Origin: Betaproteobacteria bacterium
GTDB taxonomy: Bacteria; Pseudomonadota; Gammaproteobacteria; Burkholderiales; SG8-41
Direction of reading: 5' to 3'
DNA length: 37,716 bases
NCBI GenBank assembly: GCA_025360445.1
Contig: JANYCE010000026.1
Location: forward strand, 1 to 37,716
Under the pieces are notes generated by a model that saw only the letters and a program-made list of their open reading frames with translations, was not told where the DNA came from and searched no databases. Shown piece after piece: positions 1 through 33,898 of this stretch. A program made the position numbers and the translations under genes. Within the stretch, counting starts at the first letter, position 1, and every line of letters starts with the position of its first letter.

Positions 1-1
1 G

Positions 2-565
2 CCGGGCAGCCGGCAGAGCGAGCTCCAATACATGGCGGATCTCTTCATACGAACCGCCAAGCTGCTGCACGCACGCTTACCCAATGTTGTGTTTCTCGCG
101 CCATTGACCACGCGTGAAACCCGCGTAATGTTTCAAACCGCGCTGTATCACAACAATGCCGAAGACCTGCCGCTAACCATTCTGTTCGGCCATGCGCAGA
201 GTGCGATGGCAGCGGCCGATGTCGTGCTCGTGGCTTCAGGAACGGCGACGTTGGAGGCCGCGCTTCTCCATAAACCGATGGTAATCACATACAAGATGCC
301 ACCGGCAACGTATTGGCTGCTGCAAGGCAAAGGCTACCTGCCGTATTACGGATTGCCGAACATTCTTGCGCGCGAGTTTATCGTGCCTGAATTCATACAG
401 GACGACGCCACGCCCGAAAATCTCAACCAGGCGCTGATCAATATGCTTGCGGACGTTGCGACTCGCGATCGAATCGCGAGCAAATTCGCCGCGATGAGCA
501 CAAGCCTAAACCGCGGCGCGGCCCGGCAGGCGGCACTCGCAGTGTTACCGGTGCTGCAGGGTTAG
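2..565 (+). CDS. lpxB: Lipid-A-disaccharide synthase, 5'-truncated by the window edge
   Basis: The frame is open from position 2 (PGSRQSE motif). It contains [15 protein letters not shown] and LPNILA..IVPEFIQ, and lies directly upstream of rnhB as in the conserved lpxB-rnhB order. Confidence 0.95.
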
Positions 566-566
566 T

Positions 567-1151
567 ATGCGCTGCGGCGTTGACGAGGCAGGGCGCGGGC
601 CGCTCGCCGGGCCGGTGTTTGCCGCGGCAGTGATCCTGGGCGTGAGGCATGGCATCACGGGCTTGGCGGATTCCAAAACACTCAGCGCAGCGCGGCGAGA
701 TGCACTGGAGCCGAAAATTAAAAAGTACGCGATAGCATGGGCCATAGCGAGCGCGTCGGTCGAAGAAATTGACGCGCTAAACATACTGCAGGCAACGCTG
801 CTCGCGATGCGCCGCGCCGTAGAGGCGCTCGACAAGTTGCCGTCTGAAGTCTTGGTCGACGGACTTTTCTGCCCTGAGATTGCCATCCCTTCGCGTGCGA
901 TTGTCCGCGGCGACTCGCTGATCCCCGAGATATCCGCGGCGTCTATTTTGGCGAAGACCGCACGGGATGCGCTCATGGTGTCTCTGCATTCGCAATATCC
1001 CGGCTATGGGTTCGACCGGCATAAGGGCTATGGCACCGCCCGGCATCTGGAGGCATTGCGCCTGCACGGGGCCTGTGAGGTGCATCGGCGTACTTTCGCG
1101 CCCGTTAGAATCTTGCTTGGCGAGACCTGCCGCTCGACTGCTATTGTGTGA
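567..1151 (+). CDS. rnhB: Ribonuclease HII
   Basis: [28 protein letters not shown] and HKGYGT motifs. Confidence 0.97.
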
Positions 1152-2091
1152 ACTCGCGGATCAGTTTTTGTATCGCGGCTTTTTCACGAGCAGGCCAGGT
1201 CAAGCCGCAACGTGCAGCGCATTGACGTTTTAACTCGGCATAAAACTTTTCATCCGACTCGGCGCGCCACACTAAGCGAGCCAGGGCCCGTTCATTGCCC
1301 AGCGGAAAATATCCCGCGTAATCCTGCCCCAACATACCGACGTTTCCCGCGACCCGCGACGCGATGACCGGCACACCTGCGGCGAGCGCTTCAGTAACCA
1401 CATTGGCGCCGCCTTCCACGCGTGAACTGATGATCAAAAGCCGCGCACGCGCGAGGCGTCGCACTGCTGCGCCATGCGGCAATTCACCGATCCAGCGATA
1501 ACGTGGCTCGCGGCGCATCCACTGCTTTGCTTCCCGTTCCATAGTTTTTTTTATCGCACCGCCGATCTGGACTGCCCGCACCCGGCTGGCGGGTGGCAGG
1601 TGCGTCAACGCGGCCGCGAGGCGGAACGGGTCTTTAACCTCGCGTAGATGACCGCTGATGCAAATTTCAAATCGAGACTTAAGCGGTGAAGGTTTTTTCA
1701 TGGGTTTGGTCGACTGATAGATCACCCGCGTTTTTTGGAGCAGATGCGGCGGTAGCTCTTTAACTCCTTCGCTTTGCAAAACGATCAGGCGAGTCGCAAG
1801 ATTAAGCGAGAGTTGGGCATCGGCATCCACCCGTATGTCGCCGTAAAGATCGGTACCCGTCAGCATCAGCACGAGCGGTCGATCGGGAAATGCAGCGGCG
1901 AAGCGCGCGATCGAATCGTGACTGCGCCGGGCGTGCAGCGCAATCATGACATCGGCGTTGGCGCCGTCCCACGCCGTTTGCACACGAATCCGATGACCGA
2001 GCTCGCGCAGCAGCATGGACCAGCGTAATGCCGTATTGCGATTACCGGAGTGCGCAACGGGCCGCGCCGGCGTGATGAGTGCGATTTTCAT
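1141..2091 (-). CDS. senB: Selenosugar synthase SenB-type glycosyltransferase (GT-B fold)
   Basis: N-terminal MKIALITP...[34 protein letters not shown] and SRVEGGANV motifs characteristic of the SenB (TIGR04348-type) family, next to a SenA-like gene. Start set at the ATG at 2091 rather than the ORF-track start at 2133, which would overlap senA. Confidence 0.88.
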
Positions 2092-2106
2092 GCGTTGCCG
2101 TTGAGC

Positions 2107-2112
2107 TAAAAT
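2107..2112 (+). promoter_or_regulatory. Putative sigma70 -10 element (TAAAAT) for senA, 6 nt before the ATG
   Basis: TAAAAT-gtcacc-ATG, with no Shine-Dalgarno and no clear -35. Confidence 0.4.
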
Positions 2113-2118
2113 GTCACC

Positions 2119-3459
2119 ATGGATGCAGGGCAAACTATAGCAGAGGTCGAATCACGCAGATTGATCGCGGCTACGCCTGCGTCGGTGTTGGCCAGCCGCC
2201 TGCGCGCGGCACGTGAGCGCACATTGTTGCTTTCATGCGACCTCACTGGCGAGCAATTGCTGGGGCCCAGGCTGGCGACAGTAAATCCGCCGCTGTGGGA
2301 GATAGCCCACCTCGCGTGGTTTCAGGAGTATTGGTGCCTGCGATATCGCGATAAAAATCTGTGCGCCCCCTCGCTCATTGCGACTGCAGACTCGCTTTAC
2401 GACTCGGCGCGGGTACCGCATGCCACGCGCTGGAATCTGTCGCTGCTGCCGTTGGATACAGTACTGCACTTTCTCGATGATGTGCTCACGCGCGTGCTCG
2501 AGCGGATCGAGCTTGAGCCTGACAATGAAAGTCTGCGTTACTTCGTCGAACTTGCAGCCGCGCATGAGGAGATGCATGACGAAGCCTTTACGTATACCCG
2601 CCAGACTCACGGCTACGCCGCGCCGCGACAGAAAGACATGACGAGTCCGCAGGCAAGCGCATCCGCGGGTGATGCGGCAGTGGCGGGCGGGATCTACCTG
2701 TTGGGCGCAAAACCAGGAACCCAATTTGTTTTCGACAATGAAAAGTGGGAACACCCGGTTGTTTTAAAGCCATTTGAGATCGCGCGTGCGGCGGTGACCA
2801 ATGGCGAATTCGCGGAGTTCGTCGACGATGGCGGTTACGCAAGGGCTGAATGCTGGTGTGAAGCCGGGCGGCAATGGCGTCAAGAGGCCGCCGCACTCGC
2901 ACCGGTTTACTGGGTTAAGCAAGGCGGTGAGTGGTATCACCGCGTCTATGACAACGTCGTTGCTTTGCCATCTGAGACAGCAGTCATCCACATAAACTGG
3001 TATGAAGCCGACGCGTGGTGCCGGTGGGCTGGTCGCCGGCTGCCGTCCGAGGCCGAGTGGGAGCAAGCAGCGGCGACAACTGCAATAGATGCCGAAGGTA
3101 CTGTAGCCAAGCGCGTATATCCGTGGGGACATCAGCCTTCGGATTTCTTACGTGCAAATCTCTATGGTGTGGCGGGCTCGGTCGCGCCGGTAGGCGCGTT
3201 TCAAACCGGCGACAGCGCATGGGGTTGCCGCCAGATGCTCGGCAACGTGTGGGAGTGGACCGCCGACTGGTTTAATCCATATCCGGGTTTCGTCCGCGAC
3301 CCGTATAAGGAATATTCGGAGCCATGGTTTGGCAGTCATAAAGTTCTGCGCGGCGGCTGCTTTGCAACGACCGCTGCGCTGTTGCGCAACACCTGGCGAA
3401 ATTTTTATATGCCGGACAGGCGCGACGTGTTCGCCGGCTTTCGCACGTGCGCGCGATGA
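2119..3459 (+). CDS. senA: Selenoneine synthase SenA (EgtB/OvoA-family non-heme iron enzyme; DinB-like plus FGE-sulfatase domains)
   Basis: NPPLWEIAHLAWFQEYW, iron-binding HEEMHDE (HxxxHxE), FVFDNEKWEH, RLPSEAEWE, GNVWEW, PYPGF..DPYKEYSEPWFG and RNFY.PDRRDVFAGFRTC; adjacent to senB. Confidence 0.85.
   Translation: MDAGQTIAEVESRRLIAATPASVLASRLRAARERTLLLSCDLTGEQLLGPRLATVNPPLWEIAHLAWFQEYWCLRYRDKNLCAPSLIATADSLYDSARVPHATRWNLSLLPLDTVLHFLDDVLTRVLERIELEPDNESLRYFVELAAAHEEMHDEAFTYTRQTHGYAAPRQKDMTSPQASASAGDAAVAGGIYLLGAKPGTQFVFDNEKWEHPVVLKPFEIARAAVTNGEFAEFVDDGGYARAECWCEAGRQWRQEAAALAPVYWVKQGGEWYHRVYDNVVALPSETAVIHINWYEADAWCRWAGRRLPSEAEWEQAAATTAIDAEGTVAKRVYPWGHQPSDFLRANLYGVAGSVAPVGAFQTGDSAWGCRQMLGNVWEWTADWFNPYPGFVRDPYKEYSEPWFGSHKVLRGGCFATTAALLRNTWRNFYMPDRRDVFAGFRTCAR
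2134..2142 (-). promoter_or_regulatory. Putative extended -10 promoter (TGCTATAGT) for senB, inside the start of senA
   Basis: The reverse complement reads TG-C-TATAGT, about 42 nt upstream of the senB ATG. Confidence 0.35.
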
Positions 3460-4250
3460 AGAGGATAGTGTCCGCCGATAACCCGCGATTCAAGGCTTTG
3501 CTTAAACTTGCGGAGTCGTCGCGCGAGCGCAAGAAGCACGGTTTTTCACTGCTCGACGGCTCTCATCTTGTCGCGGCCTACAGCGAGCACATCGGTCTGC
3601 CGGAAGAGTTGGTCGTCAGTGATAGGGGAGCGGAGGACCCTGAAGTCAAGGCTCTCATTGAAGCACTGGCGCCCGTCGCGCCTTTGCTGCTCTCGGCTCA
3701 ACTTTTTCATCAGCTCTCGACCGTCGCCACGCCGACGGGCATTTTGGCGGTAGTCAAAACACCACGGCCACCGGCCATGCCGGCACAAATAGAAGCGTGC
3801 GTGCTGCTCGAGGATATTCAGGATCCCGGCAATCTGGGTTCGCTGTTGCGTTCGGCGGCAGCCGCTGGCATGAGGCACATTTTTCTTTCCAAGTCGTCGG
3901 TGCAGGCTTGGTCGCCGCGCGTACTGCGGGCCGGCATGGGGGCGCACTTCATGCTGAAAATCCACGAGCAATGCGATTTAATCAAGCTGATTCCGACACT
4001 GCAGGCGCGCGTGATCGCAACCAGTCATCGCGCGCAGACGTCAGTGTTCGAGACTAATCTAACGGGGCCGGTCGCATTGATGTATGGCAATGAAGGCACC
4101 GGGCTGTCGACGGAGCTGATGGCGACGGCGCATGAAATCGTTTCGATACCGATGGCGGGCGGGACTGAGTCGCTGAACATTGCCGCCGCTGCGGCGATAT
4201 GTTTGTTTGAGCGCGTCCGCCAGCAGCAGGTGGCGCGCCGGACTCAGTAG
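3456..4250 (+). CDS. TrmH/SpoU-family RNA 2'-O-methyltransferase
   Basis: IQDPGNLGSLLRSA, GNEGTGL and IPM...ESLNIAAAAAICLFE SPOUT motifs. The ATG overlaps the senA stop (ATGA, 3456-3459). Confidence 0.92.
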   Translation: MKRIVSADNPRFKALLKLAESSRERKKHGFSLLDGSHLVAAYSEHIGLPEELVVSDRGAEDPEVKALIEALAPVAPLLLSAQLFHQLSTVATPTGILAVVKTPRPPAMPAQIEACVLLEDIQDPGNLGSLLRSAAAAGMRHIFLSKSSVQAWSPRVLRAGMGAHFMLKIHEQCDLIKLIPTLQARVIATSHRAQTSVFETNLTGPVALMYGNEGTGLSTELMATAHEIVSIPMAGGTESLNIAAAAAICLFERVRQQQVARRTQ

Positions 4251-5068
4251 ACGCGGCGTACGAGATTGGCCTGCTGCAGGATCGTTGTCGCAAGTTCCTC
4301 GACGGATTTGCTCGTGACGTCCAGGTAAGGAATTCCTTCCTGGCGCATCAGCGCTTCAGCTTCGCGTACTTCGAATTCGCAGTTGGTGCGCGTGGCATAA
4401 GTGCTGTTAGGGCGCCGCTCGGTGCGAATTTTTTCCAGCCGGTCGGGTTTAATCGTAAGGCCGAACAAACGCTTGCGCAGTGACTTGACCTGGCCCGGCA
4501 ACTGCATACTCGCGAAATCTTCGGGCACCAACGGATAGTTGGCGGCGCGAATGCCGAATTGCATTGCAAGGTACAGGCACGTAGGTGTTTTCCCACAACG
4601 CGACACGCCGACCAGAATAACGTCGGCGTCAGCCAGGTCGCGCGTAGATACGCCGTCGTCATGGCTTAGTGAATAATTTACCGCTTCCATTCGATAATGA
4701 TAATTGGCGACATCGGTTGCGCTGTGAGAACGACCCACCGCATGCGAGGCGAGTTCGCCGAGTTCTTTCTCCAGCGGAAGAATAAATATGTCAAAGCAAT
4801 CAAGGAATAGAGCGCTGGCAGTCGCCACGACGCTTGACACTTCCTGATTGACCAGTGTGCTGAATATGAGTGGACGAGTGCCATCTTTCGCGCCCTGGTC
4901 ATTTATTTGCTTGAGCGCAGCTCGCGCCTTTTCGATGGAATCAACGAAGGGCAAGGTCACTTCATTAAATGACACCATTTCAAACTGCGTGAGCAAACTG
5001 TGCCCGAGCATCTCGGCTGTAATTCCGGTGCGGTCGGAGATGAAAAAGGCAGAACGCTTTTGCGGCAT
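4244..5068 (-). CDS. ppsR: PEP synthase regulatory protein (kinase/pyrophosphorylase)
   Basis: FFISDRTGITAE, HDDG, GVSRCGKTPTCLYLA and ANYPL motifs; divergent from ppsA. Confidence 0.95.
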   Translation of the reverse strand: MPQKRSAFFISDRTGITAEMLGHSLLTQFEMVSFNEVTLPFVDSIEKARAALKQINDQGAKDGTRPLIFSTLVNQEVSSVVATASALFLDCFDIFILPLEKELGELASHAVGRSHSATDVANYHYRMEAVNYSLSHDDGVSTRDLADADVILVGVSRCGKTPTCLYLAMQFGIRAANYPLVPEDFASMQLPGQVKSLRKRLFGLTIKPDRLEKIRTERRPNSTYATRTNCEFEVREAEALMRQEGIPYLDVTSKSVEELATTILQQANLVRRVY

Positions 5069-5142
5069 CGCGATAGTCAATCAAAATAGAACCGGTAAAA
5101 TAGCTTTTTTTGATGCTTTGCACAAATTTTATAGGCTGCCCA

Positions 5143-7539
5143 ATGAGTAACAATCCATATGTCATCCCATTCGAAAACCTTCGCATGCAAGACGTCGGGC
5201 GCGTCGGCGGCAAAAATGCCTCATTAGGGGAGATGATCGGTCAGCTGGCGGGCGCCGGCGTTCGCGTGCCAGGCGGTTTCGCGACAACGGCCGATGCCTA
5301 TCGCGAATTTCTTGCTCATGAGGGTCTCGACAAGCGCATAGAGCAAAAGCTTCTCAAATTAAACGTAGAGGATGTCAATGCGCTCGCGGCGGCAGGCCAA
5401 GAAATCCGCGCCTGGATCACAGCGCAACCTTTTCCTGGGCAGCTCGAGCAAGACGTCGCTGCGGCCTATCAGTCGTTGCAGCACGGTGCGAATGATGACT
5501 TATCAGTGGCAGTACGCTCATCGGCAACTGCGGAAGATCTACCGGACGCGTCGTTTGCCGGCCAGCAGGAAACCTTTCTGAATATCCACGGGCTCTCCAG
5601 TGTGCTTGATGCGGTCAAGCACGTGTTTGCATCGCTCTACAACGATCGCGCAATTTCATACCGCGTGCACAAAAATTTCATACACGCAGATGTCGCATTG
5701 TCCGCCGGCATTCAACGCATGGTGCGCAGCGATCTCGCAGCGAGCGGGGTTATGTTCACGCTGGATACGGAATCGGGATTCGACCAGGTCGTGTTCATTA
5801 CGTCCGCCTACGGCTTGGGGGAAACGGTGGTGCAGGGGCAGGTTAATCCGGACGAGTTTTACGTATACAAACCGGCGCTCATGCACGGCAGAAAGGCAAT
5901 CATCCGGCGCAACCTTGGCTCCAAGGCGTTGCGCATGACATTTACGGATTCGCGCGTCGCCGGTAGATCGGTGCGCACGGACGAAGTGCCCGAACAGGAA
6001 CGGCGCCGCTTTTCGATTAGCGATGCGGACGTCGAGGAGTTGGCGCGCTTCGGGCTCATCATCGAGCAGCACTACAAGCGCGCGATGGACATTGAATGGG
6101 GCCGCGACGGGATAGACGGGAAACTCTATATCTTGCAGGCCCGCCCGGAGACCGTGAAAGCCAGCGAGAAAGTCGATACCTTGCGCCGCTACCGGCTGAA
6201 GCAGCGGTCTGACGTCCTGGCATCCGGACGCGCAATCGGCCAACGAGTGGGGTCGGGACCGGTGAAGCTGGTGCAAAGCGCGGCCGAAATGGATCGCGTG
6301 CATCCAGGCGACGTGCTGGTGACGGATATGACTGATCCCGACTGGGAGCCGGTCATGAAGCGCGCGTCGGCAATTGTCACGAACCGCGGCGGGCGCACCT
6401 GTCATGCCGCAATTATTGCGCGCGAACTTGGCATTCCGGCAGTGGTCGGTTGCGGCGACGCCACCCGGGTGTTGAAAGAAGGGCGATCAGTGACGGTATC
6501 CTGCGCGGAAGGCGATACCGGCTATGTCTATCGCGGCATTCTTGAAGTAGAAATTATCGACCTATCGCTAGAAGCGATGCCGAAAGCGCCTCTCAAAATA
6601 ACGATGAACGTCGGCAACCCGGAACTCGCGTTTGAGTTTCAGCGCCTGCCCAACGACGGGGTGGGCCTGGCCCGACTTGAGTTCATTATTGCGCGCATGA
6701 TAGGCGTACACCCCAAGGCAATACTTGCGTATCCCGACTTGCCAGGTGATCTCAAAATTGCGGTCGAGCAGCACGCAGCAGGTTATGCGAATCCAGTCGA
6801 GTTTTACGTCGAGAAATTGTGCGAAGGCGTGGCCACGCTCGGCGCGGCGTTCTGGCCGAAGCCCGTAATCGTGCGTCTGTCGGATTTTAAATCCAACGAA
6901 TATTCGAGTTTGACCGGCGGCTCCAAATACGAGCCGCACGAAGAAAATCCCATGCTGGGTTTTCGCGGCGCGTCGCGCTATATCGCAGCGGCATTTCGCG
7001 ATTGTTTCGAACTCGAATGCCGCGCAATGAAAAAAGTGCGCGACGAAATGGGTCTAACTAACGTAGAGCTCATGGTGCCGTTTGTGCGCACGGTCGGGGA
7101 AGCCAGGCAGGTTATCGAGTTGCTGGCCCACAACGGCTTGCGGCGCGGTGAAAACGGGTTGCGCATTATCATGATGTGCGAGATACCGTCGAACGCGATT
7201 CTCGCCGACCAGTTTCTCGAACACTTCGACGGCTTCTCGATAGGATCCAACGACATGACGCAGATGACGCTCGCACTCGACCGCGACTCAGGCATCATCG
7301 CGGAAGGCTTCGACGAGCGTGATCCCGCGGTCAAGCACATGCTGCATCTTGCAATCCAGGCCTGCCGCAAAGCGGGCAAATATGTTGGCATCTGCGGGCA
7401 GGGTCCATCAGACCATCCGGACCTCGCAAAATGGTTGATGGAAGAGGGGATCGGCAGCTTGTCACTTAATCCCGACACGGTGGTTGAAACCTGGCTCTAT
7501 CTTGCGAATGAAGCCAAGAAGTCGGCGGCTCCGACATGA
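5143..7539 (+). CDS. ppsA: Phosphoenolpyruvate synthase
   Basis: [46 protein letters not shown] (phospho-His) and GFSIGSND. Start taken at the ATG at 5143. Confidence 0.97.
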
Positions 7540-7558
7540 TGTGTGCAGGCGAATTGCA

Positions 7559-7587
7559 TTGAGTGGAAGATTTGATTGCGTTAGAAT
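7559..7587 (+). promoter_or_regulatory. Putative sigma70 promoter of pyrG-kdsA-eno-ftsB
   Basis: TTGAGT-N17-TAGAAT, ending 25 nt before the pyrG ATG. Confidence 0.55.
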
Positions 7588-7606
7588 ATGAAAACGGCTC
7601 GCATGA

Positions 7607-9298
<1,692 letters not shown>

Positions 9299-14038: not shown

Positions 14039-14275
14039 TTTGCAAGGACGCCGGCCGGCACATATGCGGCGCGACAGTTAGCGTGTCTGGTAATTCAGGT
14101 GCGTATTCAATCGTCATAATGGGCAACGGTTAACGGCTGGATCTATGCGCGTCGCCGGGCTACTTGCCTTGCGCTCCCGATCGTGCCAAAACTCAGGTTA
14201 ATTTTGTTTGGCCCAAAAGCGGTTGAGCCAACAACAGTGCAGGGCGTATCGGAGCCACCGAAGCACTGGCACCGT

Positions 14276-14302
14276 GAACTCCCATCTGACTTTGATGTCA
14301 AA
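14276..14302 (+). promoter_or_regulatory. Putative ECF sigmaE-type promoter
   Basis: GAACTC-N16-TCAAA (GTCAAA), 90 nt upstream of the ATG at 14393. Confidence 0.45.
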
Positions 14303-14392
14303 ACTGTGCTCTGCACGTTTATATTCTGTGAAATAAAACGGAGGCGTCACGCTGGAAGCTTAGATGTCGGCACACGGCGGGCGATAAAAACT

Positions 14393-14845
14393 ATGATGCG
14401 AGAAATTGTGGGCGTAGTTCAAGGAGAGCCTGTAACACGTCGCCGGTGGTTCCATGACGAATATTTCGATTTGTTCGTATGGCAAAACAGCGCCAGTGAG
14501 ATCGAGTCATTTCAATTATGTTACGGCATCGATTCAAGTGAACGTGCGCTCGAGTGGCGCAAGAATCGCGGTTTTTTTCATGACGGCGCCAAAGTAGGAA
14601 CACCGGTCCCGGGCGGCATACTAGATGGGCGGGAGGCGGGCGCTGTGGATAAAACGGCTCAGACGATCAGTTCGAGGTTCGATTTTGCTGCCCGTGCCTT
14701 GCCGGACGAAGTTCGCACCGCGGTAGCTGCTCGAATCCGGGAGTATGCAGAAAAAATGCCATCGGTTCCCATGCGTCGCCGCCAAGTACGCCGGGCTGCA
14801 TGGCAAAAACAAGGTACAGAAACCGGCGGGCGAGAGCCGCATTGA
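14393..14845 (+). CDS. Hypothetical protein (150 aa)
   Basis: Protein-like sequence MMREIVGVVQGEPVTRRRWFHDEYFDLFVWQ...FQLCYG...ERALEW. The upstream extension in the ORF track (from 14183) looks non-coding. Confidence 0.7.
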   Translation: MMREIVGVVQGEPVTRRRWFHDEYFDLFVWQNSASEIESFQLCYGIDSSERALEWRKNRGFFHDGAKVGTPVPGGILDGREAGAVDKTAQTISSRFDFAARALPDEVRTAVAARIREYAEKMPSVPMRRRQVRRAAWQKQGTETGGREPH

Positions 14846-21552: not shown

Positions 21553-22281
21553 TCACCGCGCGTAGAGCAGGAAAACGCTGGGCCGCCTGCCGATTTCTCC
21601 CACGTTAGCTTTCCATTCGTTAATAGTTGCGCTACGCACAGATTCGGTCGCAAGCGTTAAGTCGCTCGCGATACACAGCCGGGAGGCTCCCGCACACACG
21701 GCAAGAAAAATCTGCAGCAACTGATCGTTGCGATAAGGCGTTTCTATAAATATCTGCGTCATGTTCTGTGCACGTGATTCGTTTTCCAGCAGGGCTATGG
21801 CGCGGCGGCACTCATCTTTCGGCACCGGCAGATAGCCGTGAAATGCAAATCGCTGGCCGTTAAATCCCGACGCCATTAACGCGAGCATCATTGCGGAAGG
21901 GCCGATATGCGGCACCACGCGAATACGCAATCGATGCGCGGCGGCTACCAGCAATGCACCCGGATCTGCGATAGCCGGACAGCCAGCCTCAGACAAGACC
22001 CCGGCACTGCGTCCGGTGGAAAGCGAGTGCAATAGCTCGGTGGCGCGTTCAGGACTGCTATCTTTGTCGAACAATTCTATTTTCAGATCTCTTAAAGCTT
22101 TTGGATGCCCGATGCTTTTTAAAAATCCTCGTGCGGTCTTGGCGTTTTCTGCCAGAAAATAATCGAGTGCGCATGCCGCGTGCAAGGCGGAAGGCGGCAA
22201 CGACATATGCGGGTCGGTGTCGCCCAGGGTGACCGGTATTAAATGCAATGCGCCGTGCGCCGTGCCCGCGTCCATAGCCAT
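21553..22281 (-). CDS. SAM-dependent methyltransferase, tetrapyrrole-methylase/RsmI-like
   Basis: LHLIPVTLG, ENAKTAR, SEAGCPAIADPG, GPS, FAFHGYLP and FIETPYRN. The start codon is uncertain. Confidence 0.88.
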   Translation of the reverse strand: MAMDAGTAHGALHLIPVTLGDTDPHMSLPPSALHAACALDYFLAENAKTARGFLKSIGHPKALRDLKIELFDKDSSPERATELLHSLSTGRSAGVLSEAGCPAIADPGALLVAAAHRLRIRVVPHIGPSAMMLALMASGFNGQRFAFHGYLPVPKDECRRAIALLENESRAQNMTQIFIETPYRNDQLLQIFLAVCAGASRLCIASDLTLATESVRSATINEWKANVGEIGRRPSVFLLYAR

Positions 22282-22285
22282 GAAG

Positions 22286-22879
22286 TTAAGGCAGCTCAAA
22301 GCCTTCGTTGCGCAACATTTTGCACAACGCGATAAGCGGCAGGCCGATCAGCGCAGTGGGATCGTCGCCTTCCAACTTTTCCACCATCGCAATACCGAGG
22401 CCCTCGATGCGTGCGCTGCCGGCGCAGTCGAAGGGCGTATCGCTAAGAACGTAGCGCTCTATCTGCTCGTCCGAATACTCGCGCATATGAACGATGATCG
22501 TGACTAGCGCCGTCTGCTGAAGCGCGCTACGTGAATTTAGCAAGCACACTGCCGTATGAAATCGAACCCGCTCGCCGCGCATGCGCTTTAGCTGGCTGGC
22601 GGCATTGGTAAAATCGCCCGGCTTACCGATGATGGTGTTCCCGACGACTGCGACCTGGTCACTGCCGATGATCAACGCGTCGGGCCACGCGTGCCGGACG
22701 GCCTCAGCCTTACGGCACGCAAGGCGTAACGCGAGGGCCGGCGGCTTTTCACCCACCAGAGGAGCTTCATCAACCTCAGGCGCGGCGATTTTAAACGGAA
22801 TTTTCAGGCGCTCCAGAAGTTCGCGGCGATACGGCGAAGTCGAGGCCAGAACAAGTTCAGCGGGGGCAGGGTAATCCAT
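22286..22879 (-). CDS. yceF: Maf-family nucleotide pyrophosphatase (YceF type)
   Basis: LVLASTSPYRRELL, IIGSDQV, GKP, CAGS and LIGLPL; divergent from yceD. Confidence 0.88.
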   Translation of the reverse strand: MDYPAPAELVLASTSPYRRELLERLKIPFKIAAPEVDEAPLVGEKPPALALRLACRKAEAVRHAWPDALIIGSDQVAVVGNTIIGKPGDFTNAASQLKRMRGERVRFHTAVCLLNSRSALQQTALVTIIVHMREYSDEQIERYVLSDTPFDCAGSARIEGLGIAMVEKLEGDDPTALIGLPLIALCKMLRNEGFELP

Positions 22880-33262: not shown

Positions 33263-33898
33263 ATGTTAACTACCAAGATTATCAGCGTGCTGACACTGGT
33301 GTTGGCAAGCCAATTCGCAGCCGCCGCCAGTAGTTTTGAACAGATGATGGACGCCGTAAAAACGGACAATGTCGAGGTGGTGAGTTCTCTGCTTAAGCGA
33401 GGCTTCGATCCAAATACGAGCGACCGTGAGGGCAATACGCTGCTCATGATGGCTGCTAAAGAAGGCAGCAATGGGGTCGTCAGGCAGCTTTTGGCAGCGC
33501 AGGCCAAGGTTCAGCCTGCCAATGAGTTCGGGGAGACGGCGCTCATGATGGCCGCGATTGGCGGGCATGTCGATGTCGCTCGCAGCTTACTCGAGCGCGG
33601 CGCGGTATTAAATCGACCGGGCTGGTCTCCACTCATGTATGCCGCCGTGATGGGGCATGTGAACATGGCGCGTCTTTTGATTGCTTATGGCGCACAAGTT
33701 AACGGTCCTGCTGACAACGGTGTCACTTCTCTGATGCTGGCCGCGCGCGAGGGTCACACTCAGATGGTCAGTTTTCTTTTAGCTAATGGCGCCGACCCAA
33801 ATCTTAAGTCAGACGCCGGAGCGACCGCGGCCGGCATAGCCCGTGAGAAAAATCATTCAGGTGTTGTCGAGATATTGGCCAAAGGCGCGAAAGAATAA
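33263..33898 (+). CDS. Exported ankyrin-repeat protein
   Basis: Signal peptide (AAA-S) followed by repeated G.T.LM.AA..GH units. Confidence 0.9.
   Translation: MLTTKIISVLTLVLASQFAAAASSFEQMMDAVKTDNVEVVSSLLKRGFDPNTSDREGNTLLMMAAKEGSNGVVRQLLAAQAKVQPANEFGETALMMAAIGGHVDVARSLLERGAVLNRPGWSPLMYAAVMGHVNMARLLIAYGAQVNGPADNGVTSLMLAAREGHTQMVSFLLANGADPNLKSDAGATAAGIAREKNHSGVVEILAKGAKE

Follow-up and report, generated by a model that had tools for sequence, protein, structure and literature searches.

Among the genes that open the 37,716-nucleotide stretch of DNA analyzed here (the window; contig JANYCE010000026.1, positions 1 to 37,716, GenBank assembly GCA_025360445.1) is a back-to-back pair, senB and senA, which very probably forms a working module for selenoneine biosynthesis without a dedicated senC. 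The source genome, a metagenome-assembled genome (MAG; 3.19 Mb, 431 contigs, 84% complete, 3% contamination), belongs to an uncultured soil and sediment bacterium of the Burkholderiales. Our proposal is based on the identity of the two genes, the active-site residues of their products, the presence of SelD and EgtD in the same genome, and synteny. The original prediction, made from the letters of the window, had placed a SenB-type glycosyltransferase and an EgtB-like HxxxHxE iron enzyme head to head between rnhB and a TrmH gene, and the listing of open reading frames (ORFs) reproduced its ORFs, their coordinates and this arrangement. The pair and its candidate control region comprise:

1141..2133 (likely ATG at 2091), minus strand: senB, predicted selenosugar synthase with a GT4 fold
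2085..2144, both strands: putative control region shared by senB and senA, from a promoter scan and an alignment of relatives
2119..3459, plus strand: senA, predicted non-heme iron selenoneine synthase, long form

Family assignment and active site of SenA

The senA ORF starts with ATG and encodes 446 amino acids, with DinB (PF12867) and FGE-type (PF03781) domains and the HxxxHxE motif (H149, H153). Its product scored 487.7 bits on the SenA model NF041186 (cut-off 420) and 335.8 bits on the EgtB model TIGR03440, below the cut-off of 360. NF041186 cannot tell SenA from OvsA: a protein with an OvsA motif (L149, encoded at G028:C6:41494-42771) also passes it, with 427.1 bits. Therefore, we applied published active-site residues (10.1101/2022.04.13.486033; PMC11030361; PMC11237966). 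Annotation of SenA needs the three-residue motif given below, because the curated model would name OvsA enzymes SenA. The genome that encodes L149 also holds a short-form SenA together with egtD, senB and selD (L148).

In Variovorax paradoxus SenA, the iron triad is reported to consist of His71, His167 and His171, with Tyr363 as the catalytic tyrosine (PMC11237966); the aligned residues of the window SenA are H64, H149 and H153, which form the three-histidine triad, and Y396. Arg87 and Asp416 of EgtB, which bind the thiol substrate, are described as becoming His and Phe/Tyr in SenA (10.1101/2022.04.13.486033), and the window protein carries H101 and Y430 at these positions (the EgtB chain used for comparison, 4x8b, has an index one above the paper numbering, by hand count). 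The hercynine-binding residues reported for SenA are Tyr366, Asn395 and Phe396, and in OvsA the three positions shown to convert the enzyme into one acting on C2 of hercynine are Met401, Gln430 and Ala431 (PMC11030361); at these OvsA positions the window SenA has Tyr399, Asn428 and Phe429. The same nine-residue motif occurs in all 52 SenA proteins found in the trmH context, including that of the window.

A tree of 74 rows was inferred by a fast IQ-TREE run in which SH-aLRT was the sole measure of branch support; it comprises the window protein, 14 proteins drawn at random from the 51 others of the trmH context, and all remaining collected homologues of at least 370 residues. Thirteen EgtB paralogs bearing Arg87 branched off at support 100, and the window SenA fell inside a clade supported at 97, all 11 rows of which come from the rnhB/trmH context. 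A wider clade of 16 rows (support 83) comprised all 15 context rows and one row with no trmH match on its contig, and the single OvsA-motif row was placed elsewhere, on a long branch that makes its placement unsure. The window protein thus does not group with EgtB enzymes that use cysteine or gamma-Glu-Cys, in agreement with the earlier expectation of a selenoneine enzyme rather than one of the EgtB type. From the model score, the active-site residues and the tree, we assign the iron enzyme to SenA, and not to OvsA or EgtB.

Identity and likely start of SenB

The neighboring glycosyltransferase proved to be of the SenB type, as predicted, with 416.3 bits on the equivalog model TIGR04348 (cut-off 300). 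Among solved structures it matches only the V. paradoxus SenB chains 8k5u, 8fbx and 8jjn (232-233 bits). Counted by hand in the structure-chain alignment, 12 of the 14 ligand-contact positions listed in PMC11237966 are identical to those of V. paradoxus, including all five proposed selenophosphate contacts (the equivalents of Asn20, His58, Thr83, Gly84 and Arg155). The ORF has 330 codons if counted from TTG at 2133; the ATG at 2091 is the more likely start, because solved SenB starts to align at residue 14 and nine of nine aligned relatives have an unchanged CAT at 2089-2091. Translation from this ATG would leave the divergent start codons 27 bp apart, instead of overlapping by 15 bp.

SelD, EgtD and a remnant of egtB elsewhere in the genome

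A profile search of the genome found no senC next to senB, and all SelD-family matches lie on other contigs (C54, C261 and C147). The canonical senA-senB-senC cluster is recognized by a selD homolog adjoining or overlapping senB, a position that is empty of selD here. The one true SelD (420 bits) is encoded on C54 with a single in-frame TGA which, read as selenocysteine, falls in the GGUGCK loop. It lies head to head with mnmH, encoding tRNA 2-selenouridine synthase (L001:1399-2463, minus strand, and L001:2171-3562, plus strand), and selA and selB are on contig C359. The single SelD would serve selenoproteins, selenouridine and selenoneine.

EgtD is intact on contig C195 (395.6 bits, cut-off 290.9). 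In the same genome there was no match over the cut-off to the OvoA-type methyltransferase model TIGR04345, and in the assembly no FGE-domain gene was found besides senA. Both SelD and EgtD are present in all 27 sampled genomes with SenA over the cut-off (41 genomes sampled), and each occurs in nine of the 14 genomes without it; as the sampled genomes are kin, we make no statistical claim on this co-occurrence.

In the closest relative (G018), an intact EgtB (581.2 bits on TIGR03440; L132:2383-3699) is encoded between carbonic anhydrase and major facilitator superfamily (MFS) transporter genes. The syntenic site of the window genome (contig C148, L153:1363-1761) is about 89% identical on both sides and retains only EgtB residues 1-75 and 423-435, with about 1,040 bp missing; the egtB of this genome is an internal-deletion remnant. 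The deletion junction is bridged by independent contigs from two sequencing runs, X3 and X4, which belong to a single study and may share one data set; these contigs span L153 961-1952 with 15 differences and five small indels. The identical contigs of runs X1 and X2 stop at 1690 and restart at 1719, leaving loose ends at the junction that may reflect co-occurring strains with a full egtB. As far as a MAG of 84% completeness can tell, EgtD seems to be kept only to feed SenA, and because egtB is deleted, selenoneine may be the only histidine-derived antioxidant of this organism.

The transporter gene that adjoins egtD (L004:203-1345) and the one beside egtB (L153:2478-3215 in the window genome, L132:4319-5461 in its relative) encode two paralogous 380-amino-acid MFS proteins, 39% identical. 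They could move ergothioneine, selenoneine or hercynine; their family is generic MFS only.

Proposed pathway and alternative explanations

By homology to the V. paradoxus enzymes, selenophosphate would be made by the single selenocysteine-containing SelD, encoded beside mnmH on another contig. SenB would move the sugar from a UDP-sugar (UDP-GlcNAc in the characterized enzyme) onto selenophosphate to give a 1-seleno-sugar, and EgtD, encoded on a third contig, would trimethylate histidine to hercynine. Using iron and O2, SenA would then couple the imidazole C2 of hercynine to the selenosugar, and the resulting selenoxide would eliminate the sugar to yield selenoneine. Transcription would start from a compact, putative back-to-back promoter region, and the downstream RNA methyltransferase would be co-translated with senA. 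The original prediction had left the product as selenoneine or a related C-Se or C-S histidine antioxidant; gene identities, SelD, EgtD and active-site residues favor selenoneine, which stays a product proposed by analogy.

Several observations weigh against this proposal. Selenoneine production in the organism is predicted from its genes, and the linking of SelD, EgtD and the sen pair across contigs rests on MAG binning. In SenB, Ala replaces the ligand contact Thr214 and Asn replaces His235, a contact made through the main chain, and the promoter scan gave one match against 1.0 ± 1.0 expected, which is not significant alone. Because an OvsA-motif protein also passes the SenA model, the SenA call depends on a few residues and the tree. 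Moreover, the best solved-structure matches of the window SenA are OvsA chains (305.1 bits for the engineered OvsA-YNF, 8ux5, and 295.4 bits for the wild type), followed by V. paradoxus SenA, aligned in two stretches, at 272 bits, and M. thermoresistibile EgtB at 234.5 bits. Finally, the long-form SenA keeps a 54-residue segment (residues 321-374; window 3079-3240) that it has in common with OvsA and EgtB and that is missing from the characterized V. paradoxus enzyme; the short form accounts for six of the 113 homologues collected.

The alternative that survives best, although improbable, is that the intact pair yields another seleno-metabolite, instead of selenoneine or besides it (for example free selenosugars alone, or a SenA product on an acceptor that is not hercynine), or is silent. 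The activity of long-form SenA enzymes in the trmH context and the expression of the pair are predictions, and SenB reportedly accepts several UDP-sugars (PMC10891094). Against this stand the conserved hercynine-binding residues, the EgtD found in each of the 27 sampled SenA carriers, and the intact ORFs conserved across 46 public loci described below.

It is very improbable that the iron enzyme is a selenoxide synthase of the OvsA type, which would place selenium on C5 of free histidine and lead to 5-selenohistidine or ovoselenol. The scores against OvsA chains are higher than that against V. paradoxus SenA, the alignment to OvsA runs in one full-length stretch, and L149 shows that the SenA hidden Markov model (HMM) leaves both classes unseparated. 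However, the higher score is explained by the 54-residue segment missing from V. paradoxus SenA, and the better match to OvsA-YNF than to wild-type OvsA is in line with the Tyr-Asn-Phe motif, which the window enzyme carries at the three switch positions (as given in PMC11030361) instead of Met-Gln-Ala. EgtD is present here, whereas most ovs organisms reportedly do without it; no OvoA-type N-methyltransferase exceeded the cut-off in the genome, and the only OvsA-motif row sits elsewhere in the tree. Least probable of all is a sulfoxide synthase of the EgtB type, forming ergothioneine from cysteine or gamma-Glu-Cys beside an unrelated glycosyltransferase: a replacement might be expected where the canonical egtB is deleted, and the EgtB model still gives 335.8 bits, but this lies under the cut-off, His and Tyr replace the thiol-binding pair Arg87/Asp416, genuine EgtB paralogs in relatives retain the arginine and form a clade of their own at support 100, and the neighboring gene encodes a SenB equivalog with all five proposed selenophosphate contacts.

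A conserved insertion in a housekeeping row

The selenoneine pair lies in a row of housekeeping genes. Seven ORFs open the window: lpxB, rnhB, the GT4 glycosyltransferase (senB), the DinB and FGE protein (senA), a SpoU-family methyltransferase, ppsR and ppsA. The neighbors of the pair are:

2..565, plus strand: 3' part of lpxB (PF02684 LpxB, 115.7 bits; TIGR00215, 139 bits, partial protein)
567..1151, plus strand: rnhB, RNase HII, left border (NF000596, 268.2 bits, cut-off 251)
3456..4250 (alternative GTG at 3447), plus strand: SpoU-family RNA 2'-O-methyltransferase, TrmH/RlmB-like, right border (PF00588, 124.6 bits, and PF22435)
4244..5080, minus strand: ppsR (NF049928, 401 bits, cut-off 350)
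5110..7539, plus strand: ppsA (NF005057, 1244 bits)

The top NCBIfam match of the methyltransferase is RlmB, at 110 bits; as this is below the cut-off of 160, its exact target is left unassigned. Both border overlaps noted earlier were verified by reading the stop and start codons: rnhB, which ends with TGA at 1149-1151, and senB, whose stop codon occupies 1141-1143 on the minus strand, converge in an 11-bp overlap, and the senA stop (3457-3459) and the methyltransferase ATG (3456-3458) share ATGA. No step in G+C content was seen at the sen pair across positions 1-8000 (0.57-0.61). The rest of the 37.7-kb window encodes core housekeeping functions (pyrG, kdsA, eno, folD, rne, rluC, plsX-fabHDGF, tmk, holB and tatD). 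In this row, a 211-amino-acid protein made up almost entirely of ankyrin repeats is encoded after tatD (33263-33898, plus strand), and two ORFs of 220 and 248 amino acids (14183-14845, plus strand, and 21553-22299, minus strand) matched nothing in Pfam at E <= 1e-5.

Among 25 genomes of the genus (that of the window and 24 others), 13 have senB and senA between rnhB and trmH. In G017 and G019 the pair occupies the same site with frame breaks. These were considered as senA pseudogenes (L049 and L024, respectively), a reading that we rejected: trmH, ppsR and ppsA are also frame-broken, both assemblies have about 20 contigs, and, as the neighbors are equally affected, we read the breaks as assembly indel errors and not as gene decay. 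The site is empty in nine genomes, eight of which have lpxB-rnhB followed by trmH within about 10 bp and one (G021) lpxB followed directly by trmH; one genome, with trmH at a contig start, was not scored. The earlier statement that lpxB-rnhB-TrmH-ppsR-ppsA is normally contiguous therefore holds in these nine genomes, with the G021 variant, and rnhB directly precedes trmH in two genomes of other families as well. Eight of the nine empty-site genomes hold a sister-clade senB/senA pair elsewhere, about 55% identical. A TrmH tree (28 rows; two of 30 loci were dropped for fragmented matches) has 6 of 25 branches starred, and the starred branches force at least two state changes; because it is poorly resolved, the empty genus sites can be read either as ancestral or as secondary losses.

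Among 80 public loci found using the window SenA, 46 have an intact senA ORF followed directly by trmH, which bears out the proposal of a long-domesticated insertion. Of all 51 senA-trmH loci collected, 41 show both rnhB and senB in the fetched stretch, and most of the others end at a contig end. Projection from tblastn coordinates gives senA and trmH an ATGA-type overlap in 25 of 48 evaluable loci, and a gap of 2-36 bp separates the genes in 21 more. The record titles of the trmH-context loci are mostly Betaproteobacteria or Burkholderiales MAGs, with two Pelomicrobium sp.; the pair is kept in the lpxB-rnhB / trmH-ppsR-ppsA row across a large group of uncultured Burkholderiales and Pelomicrobium. 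Such a conserved context indicates that the arrangement is old, and it supports the view that the sen pair entered this conserved core locus in the distant past and has been stably inherited. One Burkholderiales MAG with the same context (L082:7651-8064) has rnhB, about 400 bp and then senA, with no senB detected; it may have lost senB.

Divergent layout and putative promoters

The original prediction had called the divergent layout of the two genes unusual. This did not hold: among 98 related loci besides the window, with EgtB and OvsA-motif rows excluded, senB is divergent from senA in 82, co-directional and downstream in seven, and not seen in nine, several of which lie at contig ends. A selD gene was found in the fetched flank of 15 of the 98 loci, all of them divergent, with selD and senB sharing a strand opposite to that of senA, and in none of the flanks of the 51 other trmH-context loci. 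As the flanks are unequal (1.5, 3 or up to 8 kb, depending on the set), these selD counts are lower bounds. In earlier surveys, 827 three-gene clusters are reported among 2,353 TIGR04348 genes (10.1101/2022.04.13.486033), and SenB and SenC are listed beside 8.1% and 6.3% of NHISS genes, respectively (Table 1, PMC13674229). Sen loci without senC are thus already implicit in print, and curated NCBI equivalog models already name both genes. A literature search, which excluded the supplements of surveys, found no description of the rnhB-trmH sen context.

The only sigma-70-like match within 900-3700 is TTTTCA-16-TAAAAT at 2085-2112. Its -10 hexamer ends 6 nt upstream of the senA ATG, so that senA would be leaderless, and we kept this candidate because the hexamer (TAnAAT) is invariant in nine of nine relatives with SenA identities of 61-86%. 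When 10 sequences are aligned over the 2.3 kb of senB and senA, an 11-nt block at 2134-2144 (inside senA codons 6-9) shares first place for length among the invariant runs; its senB-strand sequence, TGCTATAGT, resembles an extended -10 element. Together, these features suggest putative overlapping back-to-back promoters for senB and senA.

Implications for the lineage

A further-reaching possibility, which we hold tentatively and consider somewhat less likely than its converse, is that selenoneine belongs to the core genome in this lineage and has become independent of an ergothioneine pathway, with the methyltransferase translationally coupled to senA, one SelD feeding three routes, egtB deleted and egtD kept only for SenA. 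If true, the organism would be a natural selenoneine-only producer, and the compact, conserved back-to-back promoter its control point. The egtB deletion with a retained egtD would also offer a natural test case of whether selenoneine can stand in for ergothioneine, and bench work could draw on Pelomicrobium, a genus that is in culture and carries this locus.

The known chemistry is unchanged by these findings. With them, the selenoneine pathway would come to include a large group of Burkholderiales from soil, sediment and groundwater, most of them uncultured, whose sen genes are fixed in a core locus and would escape a search based on selD, the approach by which the pathway was discovered. 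What is worth keeping is the senC-less core-locus form in many uncultured Burkholderiales, the SenA model that does not exclude OvsA, the long-form SenA and the egtB deletion.

Comparison with known systems

EgtB, represented by the M. thermoresistibile enzyme (4X8B) and the type II paralogs of relatives, resembles the window SenA in its fold, iron triad and hercynine acceptor. EgtB enzymes are recognized by a score above 360 bits on their model and by the Arg87/Asp416 pair; unlike them, the window SenA scores below that value, has neither thiol-binding residue and belongs to a separate clade.

Halomonas utahensis OvsA, the enzyme of the ovoselenol pathway (8U41, 8U42 and the YNF variant 8UX5), is closest to the window SenA by score, by full-length alignment and by its long FGE-type domain, and both enzymes would use a selenosugar made by SenB. 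OvsA systems are marked by Met-Gln-Ala, an OvsM partner and usually no egtD. In contrast to OvsA (Met401, Gln430 and Ala431; histidine C5), the window SenA has Tyr, Asn and Phe, and its genome encodes EgtD and has no OvsM-type methyltransferase over the cut-off.

The senABC cluster of V. paradoxus, with SenA (8K5I, 8K5J, 8K5K, 8RYZ) and SenB (8K5U, 8FBX, 8JJN), encodes the same two families by curated HMM. The window system differs from it in having no senC beside senB, with its sole SelD elsewhere beside mnmH; in the 54-residue segment of SenA; and in its position inside a housekeeping row, where the senA stop codon shares bases with the ATG of an RNA methyltransferase gene. In all four short-form relatives that carry selD, senA is divergent from senB, as it is here. 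The window enzymes share with those of V. paradoxus the iron triad, the catalytic tyrosine, the Tyr-Asn-Phe motif, a histidine and an aromatic residue in place of the EgtB thiol pair, and the SenB selenophosphate contacts.

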